DNA of 57,080 bases, taken from an uncultured Candidatus Bathyarchaeia archaeon. Lineage in GTDB: Archaea > Thermoproteota > Bathyarchaeia > 40CM-2-53-6 > CAVXDP01. Location of the stretch: positions 29,181-86,260 of the forward strand of contig CAZLVF010000002.1 in assembly GCA_964562925.1 (NCBI GenBank), read 5' to 3'. The translations under genes and the position numbers were made by a program. The notes under the pieces are model-generated. The model saw only the letters and a program-made list of their open reading frames with translations, was not told the origin of the DNA and made no database searches. Of this stretch, positions 6,608-36,613 are shown piece by piece; position 1 is the stretch's first letter; each line of letters begins with the position of its first letter.

Positions 6608-6890
6608 GGACAGACATCGTTAGCGAAGGGTTTCTCACTACTCTGCCCAGAAACCTGCTCATAACTATGCCGCACCATGTCAGAAGAGATTCTCGAACAT
6701 CGTCATATGGCTCACGTGGACGAATCGAGTTGTGAATGTGCGGATCCCTAACAAGGTTGTTGTGTTAGTTAATTTGATACTTGCAATCTTGAATCCGGAT
6801 AGCTAGAAGCGGTCAGAACATTACGGTAGCCGCTCATAGGATTGCGATGAGAACCTTGGGAGGCTGTGAGCTCTTATCAAGATGATATGG

Positions 6891-7003
6891 AGCCCCGGGC
6901 GGGGTTTGAACCCGCGACCTTCGGCTATTCGTTCAACTGACCTGTACCAAGCCGACGCCCATGACCAGGCTAGGCTGTCCCGCTTCTTAGAGAGTACCGG
7001 GGC
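6891..7003 (-). tRNA. tRNA-Thr(GGU) carrying two introns, one after position ~9 in the D-arm region and one at the canonical 37/38 position
   Basis: The reverse complement reads GCCCCGG-TA[CTCTCTAAGAAGCGGGACA]GCCTAGCCTGGTCATGGGC-G-TCGGC-TTGGTA[CAGGTCAGTTGAACGAAT]A-GCCGA-AGGTC-GCGGGTTCAAACCCCGC-CCGGGGC-T-CCA. The acceptor stem is a perfect 7 bp, the discriminator is U73 and the anticodon is GGU. The mature length is 76 nt after removing 19 + 18 nt. A CCA is encoded at 6888-6890. Confidence 0.7.
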
Positions 7004-7142: not shown

Positions 7143-7152
7143 CTAAAAACAC
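7143..7152 (+). promoter_or_regulatory. Candidate archaeal TATA box (TCTAAAAACA) for the ubiquitin-like operon
   Basis: An A/T-rich octamer lies about 55-65 nt upstream of the ATG at 7207. A second TTAAAAATA lies at 7194-7202 but is too close to the ATG unless transcripts are leaderless or translation starts further downstream. Confidence 0.2.
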
Positions 7153-7206
7153 AGAATTCTTGTCCGGATCTGATGGGAAGTATTAGGAAAGGCTTAAAAA
7201 TACAGT

Positions 7207-8022
7207 ATGAGACATAACTATAATCGTTTAAAAGAAATCAGGGAGGAAAAAAGAAAATTGGTAAGAAAGTGTTCTACCTGCGGTGCAAACAACAGGGATG
7301 ATGCCAGCTTCTGCTCAGCGTGCGGTACATCACTCGTCGCTCCGCCTTCCGTCAAGCCGGTGCCCACCGTGAGAGTGGTTTCTCCGGTCACTCCCGTCGG
7401 CGCGCCTGTCAGGGTTCCGCCGCCAGGCATGTGCTTCTACCATCCGAACCTTCCAGCCATCTACGTTTGCAATAGATGCGGACGACCGATCTGCAGAGAC
7501 GATTCGAAAGCCTACCAGGATCTGGTTATGTGTCCGCAATGCTACCAGAGCGTGGTACCGATCGTAGCAGCCCCTGCATATTACCCAACAGCACCTGTCT
7601 ACCCGGCTCCACCCCCGATGCCCGAAGTCGGATTCGCTCCCCCTCCTGTAGGAGTTCCACCTGTAGCGGTATTCCCACCTGCAAGATCAACTTGGGGTTT
7701 CACCATATCTCTAATCGGAGGAATCCTAATCATAATCAACGCAGCCGCTCTGCTCTCCGCTAGCTTCTACGCCTTGTGGGCAGCCATCTTTCCATGGATA
7801 ACCTATTTTGGCCCGTTCCCGCCTTGGGTGCTCGTGGCGATCGGACTGATCCTCGGCATCATAGCCACGATAGGGAGCATTCTGATGATCCTGGGCTACG
7901 GAACGATTGGAGCCGTAGTAGTGTTCCCAGCGGCTGTGATCAGCCTAATCCTCGGTGGAGGCTTCATAGCCGGGTTCGTCCTAGGAGTCGTTGGCGGAAT
8001 CCTAGGAATGCTTGGAAGGTAA
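7207..8022 (+). CDS. Membrane-anchored zinc-finger protein and candidate RING/B-box-like E3 of the operon: N-terminal zinc ribbon plus a C-x2-H-x8-C-x2-C-x4-C-x12-C-x2-C module, a Pro-rich linker and about 4 C-terminal TM helices
   Basis: 271 aa. The zinc ribbon is CSTCGANNRDDASFCSACG and the second module is CFYHPNLPAIYVCNRCGRPICRDDSKAYQDLVMCPQC. The C-terminal 110 aa are Gly/Ile/Leu-rich hydrophobic helices. It is the first gene of the Ub/E2/E1 operon. Confidence 0.55.
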   Translation: MRHNYNRLKEIREEKRKLVRKCSTCGANNRDDASFCSACGTSLVAPPSVKPVPTVRVVSPVTPVGAPVRVPPPGMCFYHPNLPAIYVCNRCGRPICRDDSKAYQDLVMCPQCYQSVVPIVAAPAYYPTAPVYPAPPPMPEVGFAPPPVGVPPVAVFPPARSTWGFTISLIGGILIIINAAALLSASFYALWAAIFPWITYFGPFPPWVLVAIGLILGIIATIGSILMILGYGTIGAVVVFPAAVISLILGGGFIAGFVLGVVGGILGMLGR

Positions 8023-8079
8023 CGCATCCAACCTTCTCCCCCTTTTTCCCCACTTTCAGGGACGCAAGGGCGGCATAAA

Positions 8080-9633
8080 GTGTTCTACGTCAGTATGTCT
8101 AAAGACGCTATGTCTAAAGTTATCGATCACGCAAAAAGCACGCCCGAGAAAGAGGTAATAGGAGTTTTGACGGGGAGGATGGATAATCAGACCTTGATCG
8201 TTGAAGACGCTGTGAGTGGCGAGACGGTAAGGAGCGAGAAAAATGTGGTAATGCCAGGAGAAACTCTGGCAAAGATCGCGGACGATATCATAAATAGGAG
8301 GACTAAGGGAAACATAATCGGCTGGTATCATTCACATCCGGGTTATGGAGTATTCATGTCCGAAGTGGACAAGGAGACACAGTCCAAGTTGCAGCAGTTC
8401 TCTCCATATATTGTTGCACTTGTATCCGATCCGTCAACTGGAGAGTTCAAGTTTTTTACTCACGATGAAAAGTCCAAGTCTACCGAGACCCTAACCCACG
8501 ACCGAGTTCACTTCTACGGCCCTGGAGAAAAATCTGTGCCAGAAAGTTTCAGGAAGACAAAGACTGCGCCAAGGTTACCAGCGACACCTCCACCTTCAAT
8601 AGCTCCGCCTCAAAGGCCACCACTAACGAGAAGACAGGTCTACGCCTTGGTCACAGCGATGGTTCTTATTGCAGCAATAGTGACAGGTGCCCTACTCATG
8701 GTGACTATTTCTGGCCCTATCTCGCCGCTAAGAATGGATCACGGGCCTGTCACAAGCGGGACCATCGGCAATGATATCAAACTGATAGCTAATGTGAGCG
8801 GACCGGTTATGGAGGTTCTAGTCTACTACAAGCTTTCGAAAGACGCTACGTGGAAAAGTGATAATATGCTCCTGATCTCCGGCATGCGTGACACATATTC
8901 CTATACGATTCGTGGAAATGATGTAACCGGGAATCTAGACTACTATATAACAGCATCCGACAGCGCGGGCAATGAGATTTCAATTCCCACCAGTACGATC
9001 GTAATCCGGGACTTTGACGTTGACATATCTGAAAGCCAACTAACGATATATGTTGGACAGACGAAGACTACCACCGTGACAGTGAAATCAATAAACGACT
9101 TCGGTTTGCCTGTCTCTCTTAGCGCTCCTAACAGACCGCCCGGAGTCGCAAGCGTATCATTCACCCCCCCGCAGGTTGCGCCTCCGAAAAGCGGCGAAGC
9201 CACATCCACGATGAAGGTGACGCTAGTCCCGTCAGCCGAGACAGGCGAATATGAGATGGAGGTTCAAGCGAAGTATGGTCAGGTAACAAGAACTATATCC
9301 GTAACCATTCTTGTATCAGGCTTCGAGATATCAGTGTCGCCATTGTCTGTAACGATCCAGAAAGGAAAGACGGCCACATACACGGTTACGTTGGACATAA
9401 AGAAGGGTTTCACAGATACAGTCTCACTCGATGTTACAGGGCTTCCATCAAAAGGAATTGAACAAACAAGGATTCTCGTTATTAACAAGAAGATAGCTGC
9501 GCAGGGAACTACGACGCTTACAATGGAGATAGTAACAAGATCCGACGTACCCGCGGGGACTTATAACCTCAAGATAGTTGCATCCGGCGGAGAGTTGACA
9601 CAGGAGGAAAGAGTTACTTTAATTATTCAATAG
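8080..9633 (+). CDS. JAMM/MPN+ metalloisopeptidase (Rpn11-like deubiquitinase/Ub-precursor protease) fused to a TM helix and a ~300-aa extracellular beta-sandwich (Ig/CARDB-like) region
   Basis: 517 aa. The N-terminus carries EVIGVLTGR...GWYHSHPGYGVFMSEVD, which contains the JAMM motif E-x(n)-HxH-x7-S-xxD. A Pro-rich linker and a positive-inside TM helix (VYALVTAMVLIAAIVTGALLMVTI) follow. Repeated Thr/Val-rich beta-strand modules make up the rest (TYTVTLDI, TTTLTMEIV, YNLKIVASG). Confidence 0.8.
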   Translation: MFYVSMSKDAMSKVIDHAKSTPEKEVIGVLTGRMDNQTLIVEDAVSGETVRSEKNVVMPGETLAKIADDIINRRTKGNIIGWYHSHPGYGVFMSEVDKETQSKLQQFSPYIVALVSDPSTGEFKFFTHDEKSKSTETLTHDRVHFYGPGEKSVPESFRKTKTAPRLPATPPPSIAPPQRPPLTRRQVYALVTAMVLIAAIVTGALLMVTISGPISPLRMDHGPVTSGTIGNDIKLIANVSGPVMEVLVYYKLSKDATWKSDNMLLISGMRDTYSYTIRGNDVTGNLDYYITASDSAGNEISIPTSTIVIRDFDVDISESQLTIYVGQTKTTTVTVKSINDFGLPVSLSAPNRPPGVASVSFTPPQVAPPKSGEATSTMKVTLVPSAETGEYEMEVQAKYGQVTRTISVTILVSGFEISVSPLSVTIQKGKTATYTVTLDIKKGFTDTVSLDVTGLPSKGIEQTRILVINKKIAAQGTTTLTMEIVTRSDVPAGTYNLKIVASGGELTQEERVTLIIQ

Positions 9634-9668
9634 ATAGTTAACTAGGCCAATGGAGGTTGTCGAAAGAG

Positions 9669-9920
9669 ATGAAACTCTTTGTACAGGCGCCCGTAGGTCC
9701 ACAGACAGGGTTGGCTGAGATAGAGGTCATACCAGATCATACGATCGGCGAAGTGAAACAGCAGGTCTGCACTTCATTCGGCGTTGATCCAACGACGGTA
9801 TCCCTGATGTATGGTGGAGTCGTCCTCGACGAGAGTATGACAATTTCAAGAGCAGGCATACCGGAGAACGCGCAGCTTGCACTCATGCCATACAATATCA
9901 TCGGCGGTCAGATGGTGTGA
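9669..9920 (+). CDS. Ubiquitin-like beta-grasp modifier precursor (GG followed by a 3-residue C-terminal extension)
   Basis: 83 aa from the ATG at 9669; the ORF track starts at a TTG at 9657. The sequence MKLFVQAPVGPQTGLAEIEVIPDHTIGEVKQQV...NIIGGQMV aligns with ubiquitin (MQIFVKTLTGKTITLEV...LRLRGG). GGAGG lies 12 nt upstream. Confidence 0.75.
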   Translation: MKLFVQAPVGPQTGLAEIEVIPDHTIGEVKQQVCTSFGVDPTTVSLMYGGVVLDESMTISRAGIPENAQLALMPYNIIGGQMV

Positions 9921-10507
9921 ATCTACCGCTCCTCTATGAAGAAAGAAGATTTGTAAACCACCAGTTCCCGATGGTTACCCCCCTCGCCGACCCTCCAACC
10001 CTATATGAGGGACTCCTCCGCTGCGAGAAAGGCCGAGTGAAAGACCTAGCTGAGAAGAAGATCTGGCCGTTCACTGAATATGTGAACTGGCACCGTTTCA
10101 GGCTTGAACTTTTGAATGAGTATCCGCTGAAACCGCCGGCCGTTACTTGGCTCACCGAGGTCTCTCATCCGAACATCGTTCCAAATATTCCTGGAGCTGT
10201 ATGCGTCTCGGTTCTGGGAGAGGCTTGGCGCCCGGATCTGAAGCTTATCTCGGTCATAAACTCACTCTACTATCTTCTATCGGACCCAAACCCCGACAAC
10301 GTCTTCGACCATCCGAAGTGTATAGAAGCTGCAAAGGTCTGTAGAAGTCACGGCTTCCCAGATAGAGGGATGCGAAAGAAGACTCCGGAGCCCGAGGATA
10401 TAATGAGGTTCAACATTATCCCGATCCCTGGTTCAGCTGCTGCCTCACCAGATACTCTCCTCACTTTTAGGATACCCGGTCGAATGCGCCAAGAGGCAAC
10501 TCGATGA
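9917..10507 (+). CDS. Ubiquitin-conjugating enzyme E2 (UBC fold)
   Basis: 196 aa. The HPN motif and catalytic Cys are present (VSHPNIVPNIPGAVCVSVLGEAWRPDLKLISVINSLYYLLSDPNPDN). The GTG start overlaps the Ub stop by 4 nt. Confidence 0.75.
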   Translation: MNLPLLYEERRFVNHQFPMVTPLADPPTLYEGLLRCEKGRVKDLAEKKIWPFTEYVNWHRFRLELLNEYPLKPPAVTWLTEVSHPNIVPNIPGAVCVSVLGEAWRPDLKLISVINSLYYLLSDPNPDNVFDHPKCIEAAKVCRSHGFPDRGMRKKTPEPEDIMRFNIIPIPGSAAASPDTLLTFRIPGRMRQEATR

Positions 10508-11757
10508 AGGTTACGGCGGAGATCCCGCAGTATAAAGAAGTTGAAGTCAAAGCCTCCAAGAATATGAAGGTGCGGAACCTAAAGAGAGAGATATGTAAAA
10601 AGCTCGGGATCAATGAACAGCTTACGTCTCTGCTTCTACAGGGCAGGCCACTTCGAGAGAACAGCACTATCAAAGAGATCGGTCTTCAATCTAGAAAGCT
10701 AACTGTAGACTATATGTGGGCTAGGCAGCTGCTCCTTTGGGGTAGCAATGGCCAGACAGCGATCGAGAACGCGCAGGTCTTTCTTGCGGGCGCAGGCGCT
10801 ATAGGAAACGAGGTTGCAAAGAACCTTGCCATGCTAGGTGTTCAAAGACTTGTGATCGTTGATTATGATCTTGTTGAAACCTCAAACCTCAGCCGAACCG
10901 TTTTTTATGAGAAGAGCGATGTTGGGAAAGCGAAGGCGGAGGTTCTGTCAAGAAAGCTGAAGAGGAACTATCCGTACGTTCATCCAACTTTCCACCGCTG
11001 TAGAGTCGAGGGCGTCCCAGCTCAAGTGTATTTGAACTCTGATGTTATTGTATCAGGTCTTGACAACGTTCCATCAAGGATGCATCTCGCCTCAATCTCC
11101 CGGAGATATCAGATCCCCATGGTAGACGCTGGAGCAATAGGCTACGAGGCCAGAGTCCAAGCGTATGTTCCACCTGAGGATCCCTGTCCGATATGTCCTC
11201 TCCCTCCGGGAAACTATGGGCAGATGGCAGGTCTCAGAAACCCCTGTACCGCACCCCTAGAAGAGATGAGGATCCCTTCTCTGCCTACATCGATGTCTCT
11301 GGTATCGTCGATACAGACTCAGGAGGTAGTGAAGATAATATTGGGATACAAGACCTTCCTAAAGGAGAAGAGGTGGCCATCAGAAATAGGAGAGCCTCTA
11401 AAGGGGGCGCTTCTAGTTGATCTAAGGTTCAACAGATACTCTAGGGTTGAACTGAATAGGAATCCAAGATGTATGGTATGTGGAAAAGACGGCGTTGCAA
11501 AGAATATTGTAAGCCGATATGAAGTTTCACTTTCAAAGACTGGAAACTCGACGTCTAGACTCCAGAAAAGAGTTAGCGAACTCTTAGATGCCAAACCGAC
11601 AGAGATGCTAATGTTCAAGGAGGACAAAAAGAAACTCGTACCAGTTGAGGTTGGGAAAGAATTAACTGAGTATGATCTAGAGAAAGGAAAATTTGTTCAC
11701 ATAGTGATGAAGACGGCTGACGACAAGTATTCTGAGGCTGTTGTCAAACTCAAGTGA
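10504..11757 (+). CDS. Ubiquitin-activating enzyme E1-like (ThiF/MoeB/UBA fold) with an N-terminal ubiquitin-like domain and a C-terminal ubiquitin-fold domain
   Basis: 417 aa. The Rossmann GxGxxG motif is FLAGAGAIGNEVAKNLAMLGV. Zn-binding pairs are CPICP and CMVCG. The N-terminal 70 aa and C-terminal 90 aa have a beta-grasp-like pattern. The ATGA start overlaps the E2 stop. Confidence 0.8.
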   Translation: MKVTAEIPQYKEVEVKASKNMKVRNLKREICKKLGINEQLTSLLLQGRPLRENSTIKEIGLQSRKLTVDYMWARQLLLWGSNGQTAIENAQVFLAGAGAIGNEVAKNLAMLGVQRLVIVDYDLVETSNLSRTVFYEKSDVGKAKAEVLSRKLKRNYPYVHPTFHRCRVEGVPAQVYLNSDVIVSGLDNVPSRMHLASISRRYQIPMVDAGAIGYEARVQAYVPPEDPCPICPLPPGNYGQMAGLRNPCTAPLEEMRIPSLPTSMSLVSSIQTQEVVKIILGYKTFLKEKRWPSEIGEPLKGALLVDLRFNRYSRVELNRNPRCMVCGKDGVAKNIVSRYEVSLSKTGNSTSRLQKRVSELLDAKPTEMLMFKEDKKKLVPVEVGKELTEYDLEKGKFVHIVMKTADDKYSEAVVKLK

Positions 11758-11825: not shown

Positions 11826-13937
11826 CTATTCAAGCCTTCCCGCTTTTTTCAACCTCTCAGTGGATGCCTTAACCTCTTCAGGCGTAATCCCTAGTTCGCT
11901 TGCGGCCTTTTTCAGAGATATCACGCCAGAATGTTCAAGTATGTAGGAGTAGACTCTTTCGTCCAAATCCGATGCCTCTGGCGATCTTCTTGAGCCGCAT
12001 CTCTGACAGAAGTTCTCAGATTCAGAGATCGGCGCACCGCAGCTTGCGCATCGGCCAACGTGGTCTATCACAACTTCCCCGACTACCGGTTTGGTTCGTG
12101 GCGGGCGGGAAACTCGGCGTCTAAGTCTTGTGCTAAACCATGCAAAAGGATCAAGCCCGAGCTTAAACTTCATAAGACCAATGATGCTCAGAAGAGATAT
12201 TCCAATAATAGTTGCTACGATGCCACCTAGGAAAAGTGGACTGAGAACCGTCACGGTGGCATTTGCACGGTCTTCTTCGTAACGTAGATCGCCAGAGTAG
12301 ACAACCTCAACTTTCACCGTGTCAGCAGAAATTACTTCGAATGAGATTGACGCTATCCCTTCGTTATCTGTCACGAGTTCTTGATTTATCCTTCTGCTGC
12401 CGGCTGCTACTGTGAAGTCCAATGTTGCGCTTTCAATCGGGTTCCCGGACAAGTCTTTAAGCATGGCTTTGACCACAAGGTTGTCTCCTTGAATGACAAA
12501 GCCTTGCGCGAAGAGCGTCAATGTTGTGCGAATGCCTTCGATAGGAAGTGTTCCAGACCATTCGGCACCTTCAAAATTTCTTTCTCCTACATACGTGATC
12601 CTCAGTTGAACTGATCCCTTTCTTCCCGGCACGTATTGCATAGAGGCAAAACCGTCCTCGTTTGTCAAGGAGCTTCCGAGCTTCTCATTGTCAGCATAGA
12701 ACTCGACCACTTGTCCCGGCACGGGGTTGCCCATCTCATCAGATAGTTGAGCCGTGATGTTCAGACTTTGCCCAACAACGGTTGTTTCTGGGATACTTGA
12801 TGAAAGCTTAGTCGGGATAGGGAGGATTCTGATTCTCGTCGTTGTGGTTGCGGAATCATAGGTAGCAGACCCTTCGTAAAGGGCTTTCACTTGATATTCG
12901 CCCACATTCAAGGTTCCAGAATATGCCAGCTTTGCTTGGCCCGACGAGTCAGTCAAGCCTGTTCCGATCTCTGTTTGCTCAGATCCGGCTAGGATGTAAA
13001 ACCTTACAGGTTGGTCTGGTAGAGGGTCTCCGTTCGCATCAACCAGCGTCACAGCCGCCTCGATAGGATATCTGTACTTTACTGTTTCTGGAACGTCGAG
13101 TTTGAGGTTGGCCCCAAGCTTGGTGACAGTAAGGGTTATAGAAGCTTTCTCTACGTGAGAGGTTCCCCTGAAATCTGAATATGATATTTCAAACGTGAGT
13201 ACATGCGGCCCCATAGAAGCAGTTGAAGGAACAGACACAGAGAAATCTGTTCGTGCGGTCTCGCTTGGGGATACATCGCCAATAGTCTGCGTCCACGGGT
13301 TAACAATCAATCCGGAAGAGTCTACTAGTGAGACAGAAGCTGAATACATTCTGTCGTTTCCACCATTCTGGAATGAGATAGTGAGCGTCGAAGGTTTCCT
13401 TGCGCCGAGTTGAACGGTTGAGATCGACTGATACCAGCCTGCAACGTACAATTTTACGACGAGAACCCTGAACTCCCTAACATCCTCTAGAACCACTGTC
13501 GTCTGATTCTTCCAGTACAGCTCGGCGCGCATGAGATACTCGTCCGGCCCCCTCAAGTTCGCAACGACGATCTCGTGCCAGGTCGAACGTCCAGGCCTAC
13601 ACTCCCACGGCGAAGAGAACTCGTCGACAACGATAACTCCGTCGCCGTACACCTTGAAGAAGAAGAGTGACGCGCCCGACGGATCTCTCCGCTCTAGGTT
13701 CAACACCGTGAAATTGAGGTTTTCCGTATCTCCGTCATAGATCTTCGCGACATAAATCGTCTCTAGAATTCTAGCTCCCAATGCTCCCTGGGCTTCGATA
13801 TGAAGCGGGTTGGTAAAAAAGAACGGTCCCGCCATGAGAGCTAATAGAAAGCAGAATATGAGGCAGTCACGCCCTATCTTCGTAGACTTTCCCTCTACTC
13901 CACAAGTTAACGTATGACTCACTCTTGAAGTCGGCAT
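11826..13937 (-). CDS. Receptor-like single-pass (type I-like) membrane protein: signal anchor, ~520-aa extracellular Ig-like/CARDB-like repeats, a TM helix and a cytoplasmic zinc ribbon plus winged-helix domain
   Basis: 703 aa. The N-terminal hydrophobic anchor is LIFCFLLALMAGPFFF. The second TM is LFLGGIVATIIGISLLSIIGLMKF, followed by RLRRRVSRPPRTK, CASCGAPISESENFCQRCG and a wHTH-like tail (YSYILEHSGVISLKKAASELGITPEEVKASTERLKKAGRLE). It is convergent with the E1 gene. Confidence 0.6.
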   Translation of the reverse strand: MPTSRVSHTLTCGVEGKSTKIGRDCLIFCFLLALMAGPFFFTNPLHIEAQGALGARILETIYVAKIYDGDTENLNFTVLNLERRDPSGASLFFFKVYGDGVIVVDEFSSPWECRPGRSTWHEIVVANLRGPDEYLMRAELYWKNQTTVVLEDVREFRVLVVKLYVAGWYQSISTVQLGARKPSTLTISFQNGGNDRMYSASVSLVDSSGLIVNPWTQTIGDVSPSETARTDFSVSVPSTASMGPHVLTFEISYSDFRGTSHVEKASITLTVTKLGANLKLDVPETVKYRYPIEAAVTLVDANGDPLPDQPVRFYILAGSEQTEIGTGLTDSSGQAKLAYSGTLNVGEYQVKALYEGSATYDSATTTTRIRILPIPTKLSSSIPETTVVGQSLNITAQLSDEMGNPVPGQVVEFYADNEKLGSSLTNEDGFASMQYVPGRKGSVQLRITYVGERNFEGAEWSGTLPIEGIRTTLTLFAQGFVIQGDNLVVKAMLKDLSGNPIESATLDFTVAAGSRRINQELVTDNEGIASISFEVISADTVKVEVVYSGDLRYEEDRANATVTVLSPLFLGGIVATIIGISLLSIIGLMKFKLGLDPFAWFSTRLRRRVSRPPRTKPVVGEVVIDHVGRCASCGAPISESENFCQRCGSRRSPEASDLDERVYSYILEHSGVISLKKAASELGITPEEVKASTERLKKAGRLE

Positions 13938-14404: not shown

Positions 14405-14692
14405 ATGGGAATGACCAGTTACTACAAGGGAAGAGCCCGAGAGTATCGTGTCCTCCAGGCGCTTCGCCGCGATGGTTGGTTCTGCACTAGAAGCGCCGCC
14501 TCACATGGCCCTGTCGACATATTTGCGGGAAAAGATGGTCGAACCTTAATGATACAGGTGAAGAGCGGCAGGGGTAGAATCGCTGAGGAGGATAGAAAAA
14601 CGCTAATTGAATGGGCGAAAGCGTTCAATGGAATAGCTCAAGTATGGTGGTTTAGAAAGGGACGAATGCCCGAGATAGAAACCATCGCCTAG
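14405..14692 (+). CDS. hjc: Holliday-junction resolvase Hjc-like PD-(D/E)xK nuclease, short form
   Basis: 95 aa. It aligns with Pyrococcus Hjc ([47 protein letters not shown]) through EYRVLQALRRDGWFCTRSAASHGPVDIFAGKDGRTLMIQVKS. The catalytic E, D and EVK-equivalent (QVK) positions are present. Confidence 0.65.
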   Translation: MGMTSYYKGRAREYRVLQALRRDGWFCTRSAASHGPVDIFAGKDGRTLMIQVKSGRGRIAEEDRKTLIEWAKAFNGIAQVWWFRKGRMPEIETIA

Positions 14693-15080: not shown

Positions 15081-15293
15081 ATGATATTCTACCTGATGTC
15101 TTGTACGGTGACATGTGTGATGTTAGAAGGGAAGACCAGAATCATACTTCCGCCCAGGGGTGGAAAAACAGGTATCTTGTATATTCCTGCTGACATCGTG
15201 AAAGACTCCTCTTTTCCATTTCAAGCTAACGAAAGGGTGCTTGTTCGAATAGTGGGGAAGAAGCTAGTAGTGGAGAGGGAGGGTGAGGGTTGA
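15081..15293 (+). CDS. Small hypothetical protein upstream of the crenactin cluster (possibly an AbrB/swapped-hairpin-like fold)
   Basis: 70 aa from the ORF track only; the call rests on its position. The sequence includes TRIILPPRGGKTGILYIPADIV. Confidence 0.2.
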   Translation: MIFYLMSCTVTCVMLEGKTRIILPPRGGKTGILYIPADIVKDSSFPFQANERVLVRIVGKKLVVEREGEG

Positions 15294-15832
15294 AGAGGAT
15301 AAGAAGAATTTCAGGGCAGGTAGCGTGGCGAGCGAGAAAAGTTGGAAATCTCCGTCAGGACTATTGGAAGAGGCTCCTTGCGGATATCGGCAAGCTGGCA
15401 GTCTTTCGTGGGACGAAAGGAGGTTATTACCGTTTCTCGGGCGGCAGGTTGTATCTGATAGGAAACCCGATCGATAATGATGGCTATACCACGTTTACGG
15501 TGGGGTTTAAGGGGTCAAAACCCTCTTTTGTTGACCTCCTCCTTCAGGCGTCAACTGGAGACTTTGAGATATGTGACATCTCATTCTTCTTGAGAGATCA
15601 GATGATTGACTTCGAGAACCTACTGAAGAATCTAAGATTCCGTTGTAACGATCTTAGGGAAGAGGCTAATGGAAATTTCTCCGCAAAAATAGCAGACGAC
15701 CTCAAAGTAGCTCGACTCTCCGGCTATCCAAACATGAATATCATCAAAATATCAAGATCGTTTACGAGGAGAGGCTTGGAACCAAGTCGATTCCTTGATA
15801 GATTTATCGAGATGAACTTGAATGGGAAATGA
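15290..15832 (+). CDS. Hypothetical protein immediately upstream of and overlapping the crenactin start (occupies the arcadin-1 position)
   Basis: 180 aa. It has an ATGA overlap with the upstream ORF and an 11-nt overlap with crenactin, which suggests translational coupling. No recognisable motif was found. Confidence 0.4.
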   Translation: MKRIRRISGQVAWRARKVGNLRQDYWKRLLADIGKLAVFRGTKGGYYRFSGGRLYLIGNPIDNDGYTTFTVGFKGSKPSFVDLLLQASTGDFEICDISFFLRDQMIDFENLLKNLRFRCNDLREEANGNFSAKIADDLKVARLSGYPNMNIIKISRSFTRRGLEPSRFLDRFIEMNLNGK

Positions 15833-17108
15833 AGCAAGAAGATCATCGTACAAGCAGGAATACACTTTTGGAATGGACTATGGAACGGGGGACTTCAAGT
15901 ATGGACCGATATCATGCGGCGAGAAACCGGAGATCATAGAGAATCGAGGATACTTTCCCGACAGAGAATCGATCATGTACACCACATTCGAGAATCCTAG
16001 GGAGATAATAGTTGGTAGAGATGTTCCGCTCTATCTTCAAGCCAGCGATGACCTTTCAACTAGACTAGTGTACCCGATGAAGAATGGAGTCATCGGTAAG
16101 AATGATCTCCAGGCTTGGAGCGTCGTCCGAGAGATATCGAAGTATGGGATAGAGACATTCAAACCTGCAGACTCGGATTTCCAAGGTTTCTACCTAGTTT
16201 CCTCGCTTTCATCGGTCTCCCCAAGGTACATGTATGAAAAACTCTTCGAGGCTTATGGAGAGATCAACAGAGAACAGAAGCTGATCAAAGCTGCAACCGT
16301 GATACAGCAACCTCTCGCGGTTGCGATCGCGCATAAAACGACAACCTGCGTCGTTATCGAGTCAGGCCACGGAAACACCCAGATCTGCCCAATCTCAAGG
16401 TACCCTGTCCGAAACGCCATCGTAGCAATAAATCGAGGAGGCGGAGACTCAAACGCATTGACCGCCGAGATTCTTAAGGACCAGGGCTACGGGGACCTCG
16501 CCAGAGAAGAAGCGATCGTCAGGAAGGTGAAGGAGAGCATCGGCCTAGTTCCCATAGACTTGGAGAAGGCTGTGGCTTCTGCCAAGAGGAACCCGAAAAA
16601 GTTCAGGGCTAGGTTCAAAGTGCCTGGAACACGCGTTTCGATAGAGTTTGAGGATAACTCTTGGACGCGTTTCCTAATTGGAGAATACGTCTTCAACCCG
16701 AACCATGAGCTGTTCCAAAGCTACTTCTCCAGAGGTATGGGAAGACCTAAAGACGTTAAGGTCGGTGATACAACCTTCAAGGGCACCTTGGATTTTGGCG
16801 ACGCAGTTGTCGAAGCTGTTGAACGCTGTCCCATAGAGCTCCAGCCACACCTCTACAGGCAGATCCTACTTTCAGGAGGCAACTTCAGCTGGAAACCGCC
16901 AGAACAGCTGAAGGACGTGGCAACCGACTCCGCAAACAAGATGCGGATACTTCTGAGGAAGAAGGGTGTAACAAACGTCAAGAGCCTCATGACAGAATCG
17001 CCTCAGTTCTCAGTCTGGCGTGGATGTATAATCTATGGCTACGCGGTGCCAGAGGACTATGAATGGAGCTGGGACCGTATGGAAGGTTGGAACATGCTTG
17101 GCGACTGA
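15822..17108 (+). CDS. Crenactin (archaeal actin homologue; actin/Hsp70 ATPase fold)
   Basis: 428 aa. The phosphate-1 motif is YTFGMDYGTGDFKYGP. Blocks matching Pyrobaculum crenactin as I recall it: VIQQPLAVAIA, VVIESGHGNTQICPIS, AINRGGG, LTAEILKDQGYGDLAREE, IGLVP, WTRFLIGEYVFNPNHE, LLSGGNFSWKPP and FSVWRGCIIYGYAVP. Confidence 0.85.
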   Translation: MGNEARRSSYKQEYTFGMDYGTGDFKYGPISCGEKPEIIENRGYFPDRESIMYTTFENPREIIVGRDVPLYLQASDDLSTRLVYPMKNGVIGKNDLQAWSVVREISKYGIETFKPADSDFQGFYLVSSLSSVSPRYMYEKLFEAYGEINREQKLIKAATVIQQPLAVAIAHKTTTCVVIESGHGNTQICPISRYPVRNAIVAINRGGGDSNALTAEILKDQGYGDLAREEAIVRKVKESIGLVPIDLEKAVASAKRNPKKFRARFKVPGTRVSIEFEDNSWTRFLIGEYVFNPNHELFQSYFSRGMGRPKDVKVGDTTFKGTLDFGDAVVEAVERCPIELQPHLYRQILLSGGNFSWKPPEQLKDVATDSANKMRILLRKKGVTNVKSLMTESPQFSVWRGCIIYGYAVPEDYEWSWDRMEGWNMLGD

Positions 17109-17154
17109 AAGTTCTCTTATAGAACGAGTGAAAGGATACTTCATCACAAAAGGG

Positions 17155-17751
17155 ATGCAGGACGCTGGAACCCTCAGCAAAAACCACTCTGAGAGCAACT
17201 GCCTCATATTCTCGGGGACAGGAGTTCTGTCCGCAGTAAGAGTTCTCAGAGAAGAAGAGTTATCCACCAGAAACTCGGTTTTGGAAGCAGTCCTATCATC
17301 AGCCACCCTGATTAACCGTGTTAACCAAGTCTACCTAGCCTTACCAAGGCTGGTTTCGTCAACCATCGAAAGCAAAATCATGGAAGAGTATGGAATCGGG
17401 CTCATCGTCTACGATCAGAAGAACGTGGAGGAAGTTGTGGCGCCAAGGTACTTCCAAACTGCAAGCCAACATACAATTGTTGCCTCGGAGAACGAAGACT
17501 CTCATAGAGTCTTGGTCGAAGAGATAGACACGTTGAGAGGCAGGTTAAGATCTCTAGAAGAGGCTGTAGAATCGTTGAGGTCAGAAGTCGAATATCTTAG
17601 ATCTTGGAAGCCTCAAGCCCCGCGCGAAGAGACAGTGACATCCTCATCGGTTTCGCCGAGGTTTGAGGGAGCGCCCTCATTTCTCAGAGACAACCCTTGG
17701 ATAGAGGTGCTCTCAAGAAGAGGCCGCGAGGGTGAGAGGCTTGTCAGCTGA
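17155..17751 (+). CDS. Hypothetical coiled-coil protein directly downstream of crenactin (arcadin-2 position). The start is uncertain: the ORF track extends to a TTG at 17035 and an ATG lies at 17155
   Basis: A heptad coiled coil (IDTLRGRLRSLEEAVESLRSEVEYLRS) is followed by an acidic/Ser-rich tail. Its position and size fit an actin-binding arcadin-like partner. Confidence 0.35.
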   Translation: MQDAGTLSKNHSESNCLIFSGTGVLSAVRVLREEELSTRNSVLEAVLSSATLINRVNQVYLALPRLVSSTIESKIMEEYGIGLIVYDQKNVEEVVAPRYFQTASQHTIVASENEDSHRVLVEEIDTLRGRLRSLEEAVESLRSEVEYLRSWKPQAPREETVTSSSVSPRFEGAPSFLRDNPWIEVLSRRGREGERLVS

Positions 17752-22650: not shown

Positions 22651-23649
22651 CTAGTTGCCGACGCCTCTAAGCATCTCACAGGCTTCGCATAAATCTGAGG
22701 TTGTGGGTTCACTGCAAGAACTGCATCTGCGCAGTGTTACAGCAGATCTATGAGTTTTGAGTAGCTCGCGAAGGTGTTCTGCCGATCTGTAGATGGTGAA
22801 CTTTATTCCAGCATGCTTCTCTTCTAACCTATTCAACATCGTTCTGATATCGTTTCTTAATGCTGTGGATGCATAGGGGCAGGGAGCGGTTTGAAAATCG
22901 AGTCCAGTCACATACGCGTAGAGGACTATTTCCTTTTCAGGGCACTCAGCTAGAGGTTTGATCCGTGGCAGGAACATGCCTGATTGGTCTTCTAGAAAAG
23001 GTTCTGAACGAGCTATGCGTGGAACGTCTCCATGAAACATGTTCAAGATAAATGTTTGAATCTCATCATCCATGTTATGTGCGGTTGCGATCTTGTTCGC
23101 TTCAACTTTTCTTGCGATTACGTTGATCGCTTTTCGTCTCAGAACTCCACAGTACGAGCACGGAAAGCTTAGCTTTCTTTCCGTAACCAGCTCATCCAAG
23201 CTCTGACCGTAGAGCTCCTTGAAGGATATGATTCTGTGATCTACTCCAAGCTTGATGCATTGATCCCTTGCGATTCTGACCGCTTCGCCTCTATATCCCT
23301 CGATTCCCTCATCGACCGTTACAGCTGTCAGCCGAGACCGCGGGAACCTCTTCTCTATCTTGTTAAGAACCTTCAGAAGTGTCAGGCTGTCTTTTCCTCC
23401 GGACAAAGCAACGGTCACATGATCATCCGTTTCGAGCATATGATACTTTGAGATTGATCTTCGAACCCTTGTTTCGAAGTTCTCCCTGAAACATCCACGA
23501 CAGAAGGCTACACCCTCATGTTCTCTGAAGTAGAACGTTCCCGTTGACTTGCAGACGCCGCACTTCAAGTTCAGGAATGCCTCTAGAATCTCCCCAGTCC
23601 AAACCTGAGGAATGAGAGAACAATGTTCAGTCCAAGTATCATGATGCAT
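22651..23649 (-). CDS. ncs6: tRNA thiolation PP-loop ATPase of the Ncs6/Ctu1/TtuA family
   Basis: 332 aa. The PP-loop motif is SGGKDS. The N-terminal Zn finger is CGVCKS...CRGC and the C-terminal one is CSSCSE...CEAC. Confidence 0.8.
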   Translation of the reverse strand: MHHDTWTEHCSLIPQVWTGEILEAFLNLKCGVCKSTGTFYFREHEGVAFCRGCFRENFETRVRRSISKYHMLETDDHVTVALSGGKDSLTLLKVLNKIEKRFPRSRLTAVTVDEGIEGYRGEAVRIARDQCIKLGVDHRIISFKELYGQSLDELVTERKLSFPCSYCGVLRRKAINVIARKVEANKIATAHNMDDEIQTFILNMFHGDVPRIARSEPFLEDQSGMFLPRIKPLAECPEKEIVLYAYVTGLDFQTAPCPYASTALRNDIRTMLNRLEEKHAGIKFTIYRSAEHLRELLKTHRSAVTLRRCSSCSEPTTSDLCEACEMLRGVGN

Positions 23650-24740
23650 ACCCCTGTAATCGCGGCTCCAATCTCCTTTGATCTCTTTGTCTTCGTAATC
23701 TTGAGAACCGTATCAGCAAACTTGCCGCCGTCAAGTGGGCCTATCGGAAGCATGTTAAGCAATGCTACACTCACCAGAATCATATGCATCCAGTTCTCCG
23801 TCAGATACAACTGGTACGGAAGCTCATTGGGCAGTGAACGAACCCTTGGAGGATAGTAATTGAACGGTACGATACCTATCAAGGCTCTTCCAGGGTTTTG
23901 TGGACTGGTTTGCGTTGTTACTATAAAGTCTCCTCTCCCTGTAGTGACCTTAAGCGTACTGTTAGGTTTTACCTTGGCCATATACTCTCTAAGTTCGTCA
24001 ACACCCTTTACAGGCGTCGCATTCAAGGAAAGGATCATATCCCACTTTTTGATTCCCACGTTCTCAGCTGCTCCCTCCTCAACGAGTCCTGTGATCAGAA
24101 CTCCCGAGGAGTCTGGGGAGTAGAACGGGCTGATGGTTAGAGTGAAATTTGCAATTGACAGAAGAACGAGCATCCCCACAGCTATGTTCGCAGACGACCC
24201 GGCCGAGAAGATTCTCAACTTCGTTGGTAGCCCAGCCTTCTCAAGCCTCTCTTCATCGATCTCGACAAAGCCTCCAGGAAGCACCACGGCGAGGAAGATC
24301 CCAGCTGATTTCAAAGGAACCTTCTCTGCAAGGCTTGCGATTCCATGTGCGAACTCATGAGTTACAACGACAACAGCCAGTGAGATGAGTACGTACGGTA
24401 GGCTTTCTAGACTAACCGTTAGGCCGGGGACTATGAGCGTTACCTGAGCAGCCTCTTCAGGTCTCTGGAAGAAAAGATACGCATTCTTTACCAGGCTGTA
24501 GAATATGAACAAAATCTGTCCGACAGCCAGAGCTGCTGATACATTCCACGCAACCAGCCATGCGAACCTCCTTCTCTGAGCTATTCTCTCCATAAACCTG
24601 TTTAGAGCAGCAGTCCTGTAGATCAGATAGAATGGTTTGGCGGTAAGTCCCCAGCGTTCGGTCCTGAAGCTTCTCAAGACCACGTAGAGACCAAGCCAGA
24701 TGGCTATGAAGAGCGCTAGGCTGATGAAGGCGTCCATCAT
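23583..24740 (-). CDS. Site-2 protease (M50 family, RseP-like) intramembrane zinc metalloprotease with a PDZ domain
   Basis: 385 aa. The HExxH motif is VTHEFAHGI, embedded in TM helices. The LDG motif is PIGPLDGGKF. A central PDZ-like segment is present (GLVEEGAAENVGIKKWDMILSLNATPVKG). Confidence 0.8.
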   Translation of the reverse strand: MMDAFISLALFIAIWLGLYVVLRSFRTERWGLTAKPFYLIYRTAALNRFMERIAQRRRFAWLVAWNVSAALAVGQILFIFYSLVKNAYLFFQRPEEAAQVTLIVPGLTVSLESLPYVLISLAVVVVTHEFAHGIASLAEKVPLKSAGIFLAVVLPGGFVEIDEERLEKAGLPTKLRIFSAGSSANIAVGMLVLLSIANFTLTISPFYSPDSSGVLITGLVEEGAAENVGIKKWDMILSLNATPVKGVDELREYMAKVKPNSTLKVTTGRGDFIVTTQTSPQNPGRALIGIVPFNYYPPRVRSLPNELPYQLYLTENWMHMILVSVALLNMLPIGPLDGGKFADTVLKITKTKRSKEIGAAITGVCIMILGLNIVLSFLRFGLGRF

Positions 24741-31444: not shown

Positions 31445-32521
31445 TCAGACATGTTTGTATATGTCAGCGGACGTGTAAGTGCCAGTTCTCATCTCCTCTC
31501 CTATCTGTCGAAGGAGTAGAATCCTTCGATAGGTTGGGGGGTGCGTCGAGAAAGCTGCATTGACGTTTGTCCATGTAGACTTGGCTTCTTTCTCCATGGC
31601 CAACTGCAGTTCACGTTCATCCAAAACGCCGTCCCGATCGAGGTCGTACTCATGTCGTTTCTCAATTATCGTACCAACTTCCTGCCTAGCCAACGCTGGA
31701 TCGGATATGAACAGCGCACGTGCGCCATGTGGTTCTTCTGGCTGTAACGAGAGGCCGTACGCAATCTTTGTCAACGCGCTCTCTAGGCTTCTAGGTGAAC
31801 CGGTAAGGTATGCTGAGTAGGCGTCTGAGAAATGCTCTCTCAATCGGCTAAGTTTCATTACTAGAAGCTGAGCGACAAAGTAAACGACCAGCGCGATTAC
31901 ACCTGCGAGAACTATGTAGCCCCCGCCCCCCTTCCTCTCGTCTCTTCTGCCTACGTATCCGAACCCAAACGCCATCCGAGCGATGATATACGCGATCAAG
32001 GGAATTGCGGAAAGGAAGGTCATGATTATTGAGTCCTTGTGCTTAATATGTCCTAGTTCATGACCGATAACTCCCCCCACCTCATCTTGGTTGAGTTGCC
32101 TCAAGAGGCCCTCATGGACAGCAAGTGTCATCCTCGAAGTAGAGTTTCCAAAGACGAAGGCGTTAGGAGTTGGACTTGGAACCATTGCAAGTCTAGGCAT
32201 AGGTACGTTGCTTTTTGACGCGAGCTCTCTCACAGTGCTCTCTAGCCATGGGAACGAACCCTCCTCGAGATACTTCAACTTCATCGAAGCAGATACTATG
32301 TAGGGACTTATCGCAAACTGTATAAGCATGAAAATCAACGCCAACACGAAAGCCATCACCAGTGTTGAGGTCGGTGAGATGCTCATCTCAGCGGCTGCGC
32401 TGAAGAGAATCGAAACTGCGGCGAGAAACGCGACGAAGACGCCGAAGGTTATTATCATCGTCAGCAGTATCGTACTTTTTAGTTGAGCTATCCCAACCAT
32501 AGTGGAACCGCCGAAGTTCAA
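31445..32521 (-). CDS. htpX: HtpX-like M48 family membrane metalloprotease
   Basis: 358 aa. HELGHIKH is the HExxH motif, flanked by TM helices. The architecture is typical of M48. Confidence 0.8.
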   Translation of the reverse strand: MNFGGSTMVGIAQLKSTILLTMIITFGVFVAFLAAVSILFSAAAEMSISPTSTLVMAFVLALIFMLIQFAISPYIVSASMKLKYLEEGSFPWLESTVRELASKSNVPMPRLAMVPSPTPNAFVFGNSTSRMTLAVHEGLLRQLNQDEVGGVIGHELGHIKHKDSIIMTFLSAIPLIAYIIARMAFGFGYVGRRDERKGGGGYIVLAGVIALVVYFVAQLLVMKLSRLREHFSDAYSAYLTGSPRSLESALTKIAYGLSLQPEEPHGARALFISDPALARQEVGTIIEKRHEYDLDRDGVLDERELQLAMEKEAKSTWTNVNAAFSTHPPTYRRILLLRQIGEEMRTGTYTSADIYKHV

Positions 32522-35629: not shown

Positions 35630-36613
35630 ATGCCACAGATCATTGAATGGTTAAACCCAAGGGCTGAAGATCTTGTCTGGAGATACCCCGTCGGCGAAAT
35701 CACGTGGGGCGCTCAACTGATAGTTCACGAGTACGAGATCGCCGTTTTCTTTAGGGATGGAAAGAGCTATGACACGTTCAGCCCTGGGAGACATGTTCTC
35801 ACAACCCTTAACCTCCCCTTGATTACAGGCGTCCTGTCGAAAGTTGCAGGGTACGAACGTACACCCTTCAAGAGCACGGTCATATTCGTTTCTACGAAAC
35901 AGTTTGCAGGAAAGTTTGGAACGAGAGCCCAAACTACAGAGCTTGCACCCCTAATGACCTATGGGTCATTCTGGTTTAAGATAGAAGACTCGTCAATCTT
36001 CGTAAACGAGGTTGTAGGTGGACAGAACGCATACAGCACATCAGACGTGAACAACTTCCTCAGAGGCTTTGTAAATGAGAAGATGATCGATGAACTCTCA
36101 AGGTACGATCTTGTCACAGTATTTACCAAACTCGACGAGACCTCAACCCACGTCAAAGCCGCCATAATAGACTATTTCAGGAGACTTGGAATCCAGCTCG
36201 TCGACCTCAAATTCGAAGGCGTCGACACAACCCCCGAATATAGGGACAGACTGTTCTGGCTGAAGGCTGGAAAGATCACGCCTGAAGAGGTTCTAAGGAT
36301 GCAGACGGTTAAAGAAGCGGCAAAAGAACTCGGAAAATCACCCTCCGCCGCCTTGGGAACCGGGATGGTGCTTGTACCTCCTCTCTTCCAGACTATGGGG
36401 GCTCCTCCCAGCGCGCCTTCTGTAGCTTTGGTTATCTGTCCAAGCTGCAACGCGCAGATCCCATCAACATCAAGATTCTGCGCTAACTGCGGAAAGAGTT
36501 TGGCTCCATCAACTCCGCCAGCTCAAGTTCCTGTGGAGAAGTGCAAAAGCTGTGGAGAAGTCATTGCTGTAGGCGCAAAGTTCTGTTCAAACTGTGGAAC
36601 AAAGCTGACGTAA
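35630..36613 (+). CDS. SPFH/band-7-like protein (YdjI/'virion core protein'-like) with two C-terminal zinc ribbons
   Basis: 327 aa with an N-terminal SPFH-like beta/alpha region. The C-terminus carries CPSCNAQIPSTSRFCANCGKSL and CKSCGEVIAVGAKFCSNCGTKL. Confidence 0.55.
   Translation: MPQIIEWLNPRAEDLVWRYPVGEITWGAQLIVHEYEIAVFFRDGKSYDTFSPGRHVLTTLNLPLITGVLSKVAGYERTPFKSTVIFVSTKQFAGKFGTRAQTTELAPLMTYGSFWFKIEDSSIFVNEVVGGQNAYSTSDVNNFLRGFVNEKMIDELSRYDLVTVFTKLDETSTHVKAAIIDYFRRLGIQLVDLKFEGVDTTPEYRDRLFWLKAGKITPEEVLRMQTVKEAAKELGKSPSAALGTGMVLVPPLFQTMGAPPSAPSVALVICPSCNAQIPSTSRFCANCGKSLAPSTPPAQVPVEKCKSCGEVIAVGAKFCSNCGTKLT

Follow-up and report, generated by a model that had tools for sequence, protein, structure and literature searches.

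A ubiquitin gene cluster of Bathyarchaeia with a membrane-anchored JAMM isopeptidase and a membrane zinc-finger protein

Introduction

A stretch of 57,080 nucleotides from an uncultured Candidatus Bathyarchaeia archaeon (GenBank assembly GCA_964562925.1, contig CAZLVF010000002.1, positions 29,181 to 86,260), referred to in its entirety as the window, carries an intact and widely conserved ubiquitin (Ub) system. Its kind is known, but its architecture is a variant that appears to be undescribed. Five co-directional genes, tightly packed across 7207-11757 (coordinates and strands are positions in the window, and open reading frames (ORFs) lie on the + strand unless stated otherwise), encode in this order a zinc-finger protein with transmembrane (TM) segments, here ZnF-TM, a membrane-bound JAMM isopeptidase, a Ub precursor, an E2 and an E1. 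On balance, these genes probably specify a working system for Ub conjugation and deconjugation of the eukaryote/Caldiarchaeum type, belonging to a distinct Bathyarchaeia lineage and having its reversible steps fixed at the cytoplasmic face of the membrane. The chemistry is well supported by homology, with the domain identities and catalytic residues evident from sequence or structure prediction, while the membrane-localised function and its targets are proposed on the grounds given below.

A sequence-only reading of this DNA had already claimed a five-gene Ub operon, and all five ORFs were indeed found where it had placed them on the + strand. Its outline of the locus was right for this core (7207-11757) but fell short of the full extent, as the conserved cluster really reaches 13937 and includes a convergent gene on the - strand. 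The 4-nt overlaps that had been read at the Ub/E2 and E2/E1 junctions are both real (GTGA and ATGA, respectively), and the remaining intergenic gaps measure 57 nt between the ZnF-TM and JAMM genes and 23-35 nt between the JAMM and Ub genes. In a profile search of the five proteins, JAB, ubiquitin, UQ_con, ThiF and Zn_Ribbon_1 all scored above the curated Pfam cut-offs.

Components of the conjugation cascade

The modifier is encoded at 9657..9920 (+) as a precursor of 87 aa, or of 83 aa if translation begins at the alternative ATG at 9669, and it ends in IIGG followed by QMV, with the Gly-Gly pair at 9903-9908 (aa 83-84) and the QMV tail at 9909-9917. Pfam assigns it to ubiquitin with 37.0 bits (gathering cut-off (GA) 25.4; 2.9e-9) and to TUG-UBL1 with 37.8 bits, and its matches in the PDB are ubiquitin and the Caldiarchaeum Ub-like (Ubl) entries 2mqj and 6fnn, so that what had been described as a Ub-like protein ending in GG+QMV is a ubiquitin-family modifier. 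The terminal stretch LALMPYNIIGG is invariant, as is the GG itself in 26 related loci, where the tail behind it ranges from 0 to 6 aa. The protein is 79-88% identical between Bathyarchaeia lineages and 59% identical to the Thermoplasmata copies (alignment A7), and it is under extreme purifying selection.

The UBC-type E2 (9917..10507, +, 196 aa) matches UQ_con with 62.3 bits (GA 27; 4.8e-17) and 261 E2 chains of the PDB at E<=1e-3, with Rad6/Ubc2 as the best (7e-13). Its HPN motif (10166-10174, aa 84-86) and Cys96 (10202-10204) are in register with these chains and invariant in 20 orthologues, which bears out the earlier call of an E2 with an HPN/Cys motif. The window E2 scores 258-320 bits against other Bathyarchaeia E2s, 52-58 bits against those of Aigarchaeota and 48 bits against human UBE2D2; judged by such sequence scores, it is about equally far from the Aigarchaeota and the human enzymes, and the system stands as a separate deep branch. 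A C-terminal tail of ~50 aa (aa 134-196; 10315-10504) carries a duplicated RFNIIP/FRIP motif, of the form D[IV]VRFN[IV]VP[VI]P ... D[IV][IV]RF[RD]I, that is conserved in Bathyarchaeia, absent from the Thermoplasmata E2s, and may be a docking peptide.

The E1 (10504..11757, +, 417 aa; ThiF 156 bits, 1.2e-45) combines an N-terminal Ubl domain (10504-10713; Pfam ubiquitin 39.8 bits, 3.9e-10, aa 9-64), a ThiF adenylation domain (10720-11493) and a C-terminal beta-grasp (11512-11751) that is predicted to resemble the ubiquitin-fold domain (UFD) of eukaryotic E1s. Its best PDB match is the active adenylation domain of UBA1 (5e-29), compared with 1e-16 for MoeB/ThiF. Invariant in 34 E1 homologues are the Gly-rich loop (GAGAIGNE), a Zn tetrad (C228/C231/C323/C326) and C248 in an 'NPC' motif; this C248 and the C96 of the E2 are the presumed thioester sites. 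An AlphaFold2 (AF2) model computed from the homologue alignment (predicted local distance difference test (pLDDT) 88.7, predicted template-modelling score (pTM) 0.87) consists of an N-terminal beta-grasp (1-70), a Rossmann domain whose crossover loop is disordered around C248, and, at aa 337-416, a C-terminal domain of b-a-b-b-a-b-b order with pLDDT ~90, whose UFD-like character is a matter of structure prediction only. When the model was searched with Foldseek, UBA3 (the NEDD8 E1) and SAE2 came first over ~424 columns, whereas MoeB/ThiF aligned over ~260. That this 'E1' might be a plain MoeB/ThiF is made unlikely by its nearest relatives, UBA1 and UBA3, and by the extra Ubl and predicted UFD-like domains.

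Membrane-anchored components

The isopeptidase gene (8080..9633, +) encodes a membrane-anchored, Rpn11-like JAMM/MPN+ protein of 517 aa (Pfam JAB 59.5 bits, 3.5e-16), whose best PDB match is Caldiarchaeum Rpn11 (CsRpn11; 6fjv, 1.9e-19), followed by CSN5, Rpn11, BRCC36 and AMSH. The motif E...HxHx7Sx2D is complete in the window protein (8149..8370, +; E25 in KEVIG, H84-S-H86-x7-S94-x2-D97); both His, the Ser and the Asp are invariant in alignment A2, and E25 aligns with the Glu of CsRpn11. A Pro-rich linker and RR lead into a single TM helix (8638..8709, +, aa 187-210, Kyte-Doolittle (KD) hydropathy 2.64), which is followed by predicted extracellular Ig-like/DUF5980 repeats (8722..9630, +; Pfam DUF5980 34.5 bits, I-set 26.5 bits). 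TM segments were called throughout from 19-residue KD windows, and those that had been proposed for the first two genes of the cluster are present, with maxima of 2.7 in ZnF-TM and 2.6 in the JAMM protein. With no signal peptide ahead of them, the JAMM and zinc domains begin at residue 1 and should therefore face the cytoplasm, which would place the C-terminal 300 aa of Ig-like repeats of the JAMM protein outside the cell.

A TM helix is found in every Bathyarchaeia JAMM orthologue, even though identity among the lineages is only 30-45%. In four loci (L024, L025, L027 and L028) the ectodomain is replaced by a 6-TM polytopic region; membrane attachment is constant across Bathyarchaeia though the type of anchor changes. 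Full-length homologues of JAMM with its TM helix form more than 100 clusters, of which the named ones are Bathyarchaeia. Away from the Ub cluster, Bathyarchaeia genomes also encode another JAMM, which is small (143-150 aa) and soluble (L026 and L029-L046; JAMM at ~8000-8430). It probably corresponds to the SAMP-specific CsJAMM of Caldiarchaeum, SAMPs being small archaeal modifier proteins.

The first gene of the cluster (7207..8022, +, 271 aa) encodes ZnF-TM, in which a zinc ribbon and a B-box-like module precede ~4 TM helices, and which is a candidate E3-like adaptor. Its likely start is a TTG at 7258 (254 aa), given that homologues begin with 'MVKKC' and that gene callers on sister contigs agree. 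The protein is 50-81% identical across Bathyarchaeia and matches Zn_Ribbon_1 (32 bits) and DZR (double zinc ribbon) above cut-off. The N-terminal ribbon (7270..7323, +; C22-x2-C25-x3-N-x6-C36-x2-C39 with an invariant NRDDA) retrieves, as a profile against the PDB, the zinc finger of Sulfolobus ArnA (5a8i) at 6e-7. The same module recurs in the tail of the convergent Big_1 protein described below, in small ZnF proteins encoded at other loci and, as a fusion with JAMM, in P0007, one zinc-ribbon type thus being shared by four cluster components. An NZF/RanBP2 identity was considered for the ribbon, whose spacing C-x2-C-x3-N-x6-C-x2-C agrees with that consensus, and rejected, Zn_ribbon_RanBP being a weak match seen in 2 of 30 homologues and the PDB profile preferring the ArnA-type ribbon. 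Farther away in the window, an SPFH/Band-7 protein (35630-36613, +) with two C-terminal zinc ribbons of the Zn_Ribbon_1 type is a further membrane-associated carrier of this ribbon.

The second zinc module (7432..7542, +) is binuclear and B-box-like, with the ligand pattern C76-x2-H79-x8-C88-x2-C91-x4-C96-x2-[D/C]99-x9-C109-x2-C112. Seven of the eight ligands are strictly invariant across 30 homologues, and position 99 is Asp in the window protein and Cys in several others. All 30 homologues match zf-B_box (PF00643) at E<=0.01, the best at 1.5e-5, and the homologue from Thermoplasmata passes GA with 25.3 bits. No RING domain was found in any cluster protein; there is a weak match of Prok-RING_1 to the zinc ribbon (E 0.009) and the B-box-like module. 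What remains of ZnF-TM is a Gly-rich domain of four TM helices (7687..8019, +; KD windows up to 2.7; AF2 helices at 162-268 with pLDDT 80-90), in agreement with hydropathy, which gives ~4 helices in aa 161-271. This is the best-conserved part of the protein, with a near-invariant GYGTIG...GGGF.AGF.LG..GGILGMLGR, and a Foldseek search of the AF2 model against the PDB returned nothing below E=0.4, which leaves homology of the TM domain undetectable by this route. The earlier description of an 'E3-like' zinc-finger protein therefore holds as far as a membrane zinc protein is concerned, but its second module is B-box-like and not RING, and the E3 label is reached through a sub-threshold match and by elimination; a role of ZnF-TM as E3 is inferred in this way and by analogy. 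Prokaryotic B-boxes have been tied to the folding, stability and proteolysis of membrane proteins, according to a summary of Burroughs et al. 2011 given in another paper (PMC4506424).

Directly behind the E1 gene, with 68 nt between it and the facing stop codon, a convergent gene (11826..13937, -) encodes a type I membrane protein of 703 aa with Ig-like repeats of the Big_1 family (Pfam 99.9 bits). Hydropathy places its TM helix at 12168-12245 (-), and an N-terminal signal anchor is also called. The predicted cytoplasmic tail contains the shared zinc ribbon (11988-12056, -; Zn_Ribbon_1 23.9 bits) and a possible winged helix-turn-helix (wHTH; 11835-11969, -; HTH_24 E=0.024, weak), and its sequence is conserved in two other loci (L008 and L009). 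Wherever a Bathyarchaeia locus extends far enough, a Big_1 gene stands at this place, and its product is a conserved partner or a candidate substrate. No homology was detected between the ectodomains of the JAMM and Big_1 proteins. Just past the Big_1 gene, and divergent from it, lies an Hjc-like (PD-(D/E)xK) gene of 95 aa (14405-14692, +), which is kept beside Big_1 in at least 12 Bathyarchaeia loci through either a functional link or mere synteny.

Conservation across genomes

Homologous loci (numbered with the prefix L) were collected by distant-homologue lookups and a scan of species-representative genomes, and were analysed with our own ORF/phmmer script. The gene order ZnF-TM, JAMM-TM, Ub, E2, E1, (small B-box) and convergent Big_1 is found in at least 16 species-level Bathyarchaeia genomes, and the exact window proteins occur on nine metagenome contigs in identical order. 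The small B-box gene, which follows directly after E1 in most lineages, encodes a soluble zinc-ribbon/B-box protein of 103-144 aa. There is one cluster per genome in all metagenome-assembled genomes (MAGs) but CAVPLU01, in which two copies of the whole cluster lie on different contigs (L018 and L047), the JAMM of L047 being split into two ORFs.

Beyond Bathyarchaeia, a TM-JAMM accompanies Ub, E2 and a shorter E1 in two MAGs of Thermoplasmata (L020 and L021); L020 also has TM B-box proteins, and the contig of L021 ends at E1. In a MAG labelled Thermoleophilia, a single reading frame joins Ub to the N-terminal end of the E2 (L048:8674-9381, +); the neighbours of this fusion are a TM-JAMM, an E1 and a membrane protein with zinc ribbon, B-box and DUF4190. 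This bacterial-labelled locus is explained by either horizontal transfer or mis-binning.

A proposed ubiquitin cycle at the membrane

The components can be arranged into a cycle as follows. The precursor, of 83 aa, would have its QMV cut off by the JAMM domain that the membrane protein presents to the cytoplasm, exposing Gly-Gly; the E1 would adenylate Ub and then hold it as a thioester on Cys248 of its flexible crossover loop; and the UFD-like C-terminal domain would recruit the E2, with Ub passing to Cys96. The zinc-ribbon/B-box membrane protein might then act as a RING-like, non-catalytic adaptor that brings E2~Ub to membrane-proximal lysines, for which the cytoplasmic tail of the convergent Ig-repeat surface protein Big_1 would be the best candidate target or scaffold, and the membrane JAMM would finally take Ub off. 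Such a cycle would most likely serve to control the turnover or signalling of cell-surface proteins. Processing of pro-Ub by JAMM and transfer through E1, E2 and E3 have been demonstrated for the Caldiarchaeum homologues (PMC5654768, PMC6043591).

Several observations weigh against this proposal and are gathered here. The support for the system of the window consists of genes and predicted structures, and biochemical demonstration of a thioester cascade and of isopeptide formation is confined to the Caldiarchaeum homologues (PMC5654768). The TM segments were called from hydropathy and AF2 helices and not by a dedicated predictor. For the B-box-like module, zf-B_box reaches 20.6 bits in the window protein, below its GA of 24.1; the corresponding profile finds little in the PDB (the B-box of TIF1-beta at E=0.29); and the zinc half of the AF2 model (aa 45-134) has pLDDT <50, which makes it unusable for fold assignment. 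To our knowledge, an E3 function of B-boxes has not been established in prokaryotes. The lineage of the window lacks the soluble B-box paralogue that other lineages have. A sequence test of the C-terminal E1 domain as Ubl gave no usable signal (an hhalign probability of 0.3% and, in a separate search, only summed weak polyUb matches), and the wHTH in the Big_1 tail found nothing significant in a phmmer search of the PDB, beside its weak Pfam E=0.024. Moreover, Ub, E2 and E1 are soluble, so that conjugation could also take place away from the membrane. For this reason the suggestion of the sequence-only reading that the whole Ub cycle is organised at the membrane stands for its two anchored members, the JAMM and zinc-finger proteins, and is no more than an inference for the cycle as a whole.

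A further point of this kind concerns the catalytic Glu. In many orthologous membrane JAMMs of Bathyarchaeia (L007-L011, L015, L018, L019, L023 and L047; JAMM genes near locus positions 8000-9600) the general-base Glu is Gln or Arg, with the Zn ligands and the Ser retained, whereas it is present in 22 of 22 soluble JAMMs of Aigarchaeota. Such proteins may be Ub binders or pseudo-enzymes rather than cleavers, or may have a shifted Glu ('EQ' variants). The JAMM of the window retains its Glu, and its partner Ub has a tail that requires removal. Glu stands at or beside the canonical position in all lineages with a tailed Ub, and the three lineages out of three that lack it have a tail-less Ub, but this association was set aside as not significant (p~0.1 by hand count, among lineages that are related).

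Comparison with known systems

The operon of Caldiarchaeum subterraneum (Nunoura 2011, PMC3082918; PMC5654768; PMC6043591) consists of Ub, an E1-like and an E2-like protein, a small RING finger protein and an Rpn11-like JAMM. It has in common with the cluster of the window the five functional roles and their clustering in an operon, a short tail behind the GG of Ub, the HPN motif and Cys of the E2, a single ThiF-type E1 chain with a C-terminal beta-grasp (predicted, in the window protein), and the JAMM, for which CsRpn11 is the closest relative. The differences concern architecture. In 22 loci of Aigarchaeota/Nitrososphaeria the JAMM is soluble (200-245 aa, no TM helix) and divergent from Ub-E2-E1, whereas that of the window is co-directional, membrane-anchored and equipped with a 300-aa ectodomain, a contrast of which the soluble-against-anchored part had been anticipated and which the locus comparison confirms. 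Indeed, the divergent soluble arrangement has been published for Caldiarchaeum (Hennell James 2017, PMC5654768), and Fuchs 2018 name its enzyme a 'primordial soluble Rpn11' (PMC6043591). The zinc protein of the window, with zinc ribbon, B-box-like module and 4 TM helices, stands in the place of the small RING protein of Caldiarchaeum. Aigarchaeota E1s have no N-terminal Ubl and a C-terminal Ubl that Pfam detects, whereas the window E1 has an N-terminal Ubl, and the Big_1 membrane partner is an extra conserved member relative to the Caldiarchaeum operon.

Asgard archaea (PMC10936438) have an archaeal set of E1, E2, Ub and MPN proteins for which, as in the window, a link to membrane biology is proposed. 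However, ESCRT-I/II neighbours and UEV domains provide this link in Asgard archaea, whereas that of the window is direct, by TM helices on the deubiquitinase (DUB) and the zinc-finger protein, and no ESCRT genes were found in the window's cluster.

Comparable eukaryotic systems are Hrd1 and Doa10 of endoplasmic-reticulum-associated degradation (ERAD) and the MARCH ligases, multi-pass membrane proteins whose cross-brace zinc domain faces the cytosol, and endosomal AMSH, a JAMM deubiquitinase that acts at a membrane. The window differs from these in that Foldseek detected no homology of the TM domains (best E 0.4), in that its zinc domain is B-box-like and not RING-H2 or RING-CH, and in that the JAMM itself is integral to the membrane and not recruited to it.

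That Bathyarchaeota have a Ub system is already known: a Ub modifier system has been reported, together with crenactin, CdvABC and FtsZ, in single-cell genomes of thermophilic members of the Miscellaneous Crenarchaeotal Group (MCG)/Bathyarchaeota (Saw et al. 2015, PMC4571567), where the part of the text available gives presence only, and not gene order, domain architecture or membrane anchoring. The gene order of the Bathyarchaeia Ub cluster, its membrane anchors, the B-box protein, the N-terminal Ubl of the E1 and the Big_1 partner were found to be undescribed in the literature searched (subscription papers lay outside it), and the main and supplementary text of Hennell James 2017, figure images excepted, makes no mention of TM features or of Bathyarchaeota.

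Alternative explanations

The strongest competing explanation, though an unlikely one, keeps the same E1-E2-JAMM chemistry and makes ZnF-TM a Ub/Ubl receptor, a docking platform or the main substrate instead of an E3. The partner of its zinc ribbon would be Ub or the N-terminal Ubl of the E1, and the E2 would act without an E3 or, in other lineages, with the soluble B-box paralogue. A common binding partner would fit the presence of the ribbon on four cluster components, the N-terminal Ubl of the E1 is non-conjugatable and needs a partner, and the sub-threshold B-box assignment leaves room for such a role. However, the cluster offers no candidate for a RING-like cross-brace domain other than the B-box-like module, whose eight ligands are conserved, and most lineages have a second, soluble B-box gene immediately behind E1, a duplication more readily expected of an enzyme cofactor than of a substrate.

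The opposite course is to extend the proposed cycle into a self-contained machine for membrane ubiquitylation, a prokaryotic counterpart of ERAD or of plasma-membrane protein sorting, in which a multi-pass B-box ligase and an integral Rpn11-like DUB write and erase Ub on the tail of an Ig-repeat receptor. We regard this bolder form as rather improbable on present evidence; were it true, events outside the cell would be coupled to Ub-dependent turnover of the receptor or to release of its zinc-ribbon/winged-helix tail, and control of membrane proteins by Ub would be older than eukaryotes and independent of ESCRT.

Somewhat more doubtful still is a transmembrane signalling device, in which the Ig-like ectodomains of JAMM, of Big_1 or of both sense the outside and the Ub state of the Big_1 tail is switched, a switch that could release or inactivate a membrane-tethered regulator made of the zinc ribbon and the possible winged helix. 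Both proteins do join Ig-like repeats, predicted to lie outside the cell, to cytoplasmic modules that are Ub-related or of the zinc-ribbon type, and Big_1 is always present, with its tail conserved in L008 and L009. Yet a sensor in the JAMM ectodomain is not essential, seeing that some lineages have swapped it for a polytopic TM region, the two ectodomains are not detectably related, and the wHTH is as weak as described above, in Pfam and PDB alike.

It is highly improbable that the cluster serves antiviral defence in the manner of the bacterial Bil, CBASS-Cap2-Cap3 or 6E operons. Such operons (PMC10557695) do combine E1, E2, Ubl and JAB, as the window does, and some of the bacterial loci compared (L080-L090) have a TM-bearing JAB beside E1; likewise, the PADLOC E1-E2 and BilD models match the adenylation domain of the E1 (E 1e-8 to 1e-17) and the PADLOC JAB models match the JAMM (E 6e-7). 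However, E2, Ub and ZnF have no PADLOC match, and no NCBIfam equivalog passes its cut-off. Moreover, the bacterial systems lie in defence islands and often have fused E1-E2, whereas the cluster of the window occurs in a single arrangement across Bathyarchaeia, as a single copy per genome apart from the MAG named above, with a Ub under extreme purifying selection. Its setting is one of housekeeping genes and not an island (EF-1alpha, S10, S7, eRF1, Hjc, DNA polymerase B, primase and aminoacyl-tRNA synthetases).

A system of the sulfur-carrier or SAMP type, with a MoaD/ThiS-like carrier and a MoeB-type E1 and no true Ub conjugation, can be dismissed as next to impossible, for although MoeB, ThiF and SAMP-E1 models are the best NCBIfam matches of the E1 by E-value, their scores are far below cut-off (SAMP E1 96.5 vs 450 bits, MoeB 107.5 vs 449), the UBC E2 with its HPN and Cys is translationally coupled, the modifier matches Pfam ubiquitin and not ThiS/MoaD, the E1 has its additional Ubl and UFD-like domains, and the separate small soluble JAMM is encoded elsewhere in Bathyarchaeia genomes.

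Genomic neighbourhood

Upstream of the cluster, the sequence-only reading had placed a tRNA-Thr and described the operon as lying just downstream of it. The strand does not agree with this, as the tRNA-like gene (~6886-7003) is on the - strand and divergent from the operon, but Thr(GGU) is its best reading. Specifically, the gene has an encoded CCA, the discriminator U73, A37 and an anticodon GGU, and the Thr(GGU) reading is kept on account of the Rfam alignment, A37 and U73. The Rfam score is sub-threshold (27.3 bits against a gathering score of 29), and ARAGORN made no call in this region. The gene seems to need an intron of ~18-20 nt in the anticodon loop as well as a second insertion located between the 5' acceptor strand and the D arm, and two alternative 5' acceptor strands (GCUCCGG and GCCCCGG) are able to pair with the 3' strand; after brute-force removal of a second intron, the calls of ARAGORN were ambiguous between Pro and Thr.

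Downstream, a crenactin gene (15822-17108, +; Pfam Actin 59.9 bits) starts 4.07 kb past the stop codon of the E1. The distance of 4 kb on which the claim of a rare co-occurrence of Ub and crenactin had been built is real, but the co-occurrence is not new in Bathyarchaeota/MCG (PMC4571567) and the adjacency is lineage-specific. Crenactin was accordingly rejected as a member of the module, its adjacency being seen only in the window's own lineage. The gene is translationally coupled to an upstream ORF of 180 aa and is followed by one of 217-238 aa (region 15290-17751, +); neither has a Pfam match, and both may be arcadin-like partners. Two membrane metalloproteases of the window, an M50 site-2-protease-like enzyme with PDZ and an M48/HtpX-like enzyme (23583-24740, -, and 31445-32521, -), are candidate processors of membrane proteins.

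Implications

Archaeal Ub operons are the best models for the origin of the eukaryotic system, and they have so far been studied only as soluble proteins of Aigarchaeota and Asgard archaea. The cluster described here comes from Bathyarchaeia, which are among the most abundant archaea of sediments, and adds a third deep branch of E1, E2 and Ub sequences for phylogenies of the system's origin. It also widens the architectural range of such systems, with an E1 that has both an N-terminal Ubl and a predicted UFD-like domain, and with a B-box-like module in place of RING. Big_1 provides a concrete candidate substrate or scaffold, whereas the physiological targets of the Caldiarchaeum system are unknown, and the cluster as a whole offers a testable link between Ub and the control of membrane proteins outside eukaryotes.

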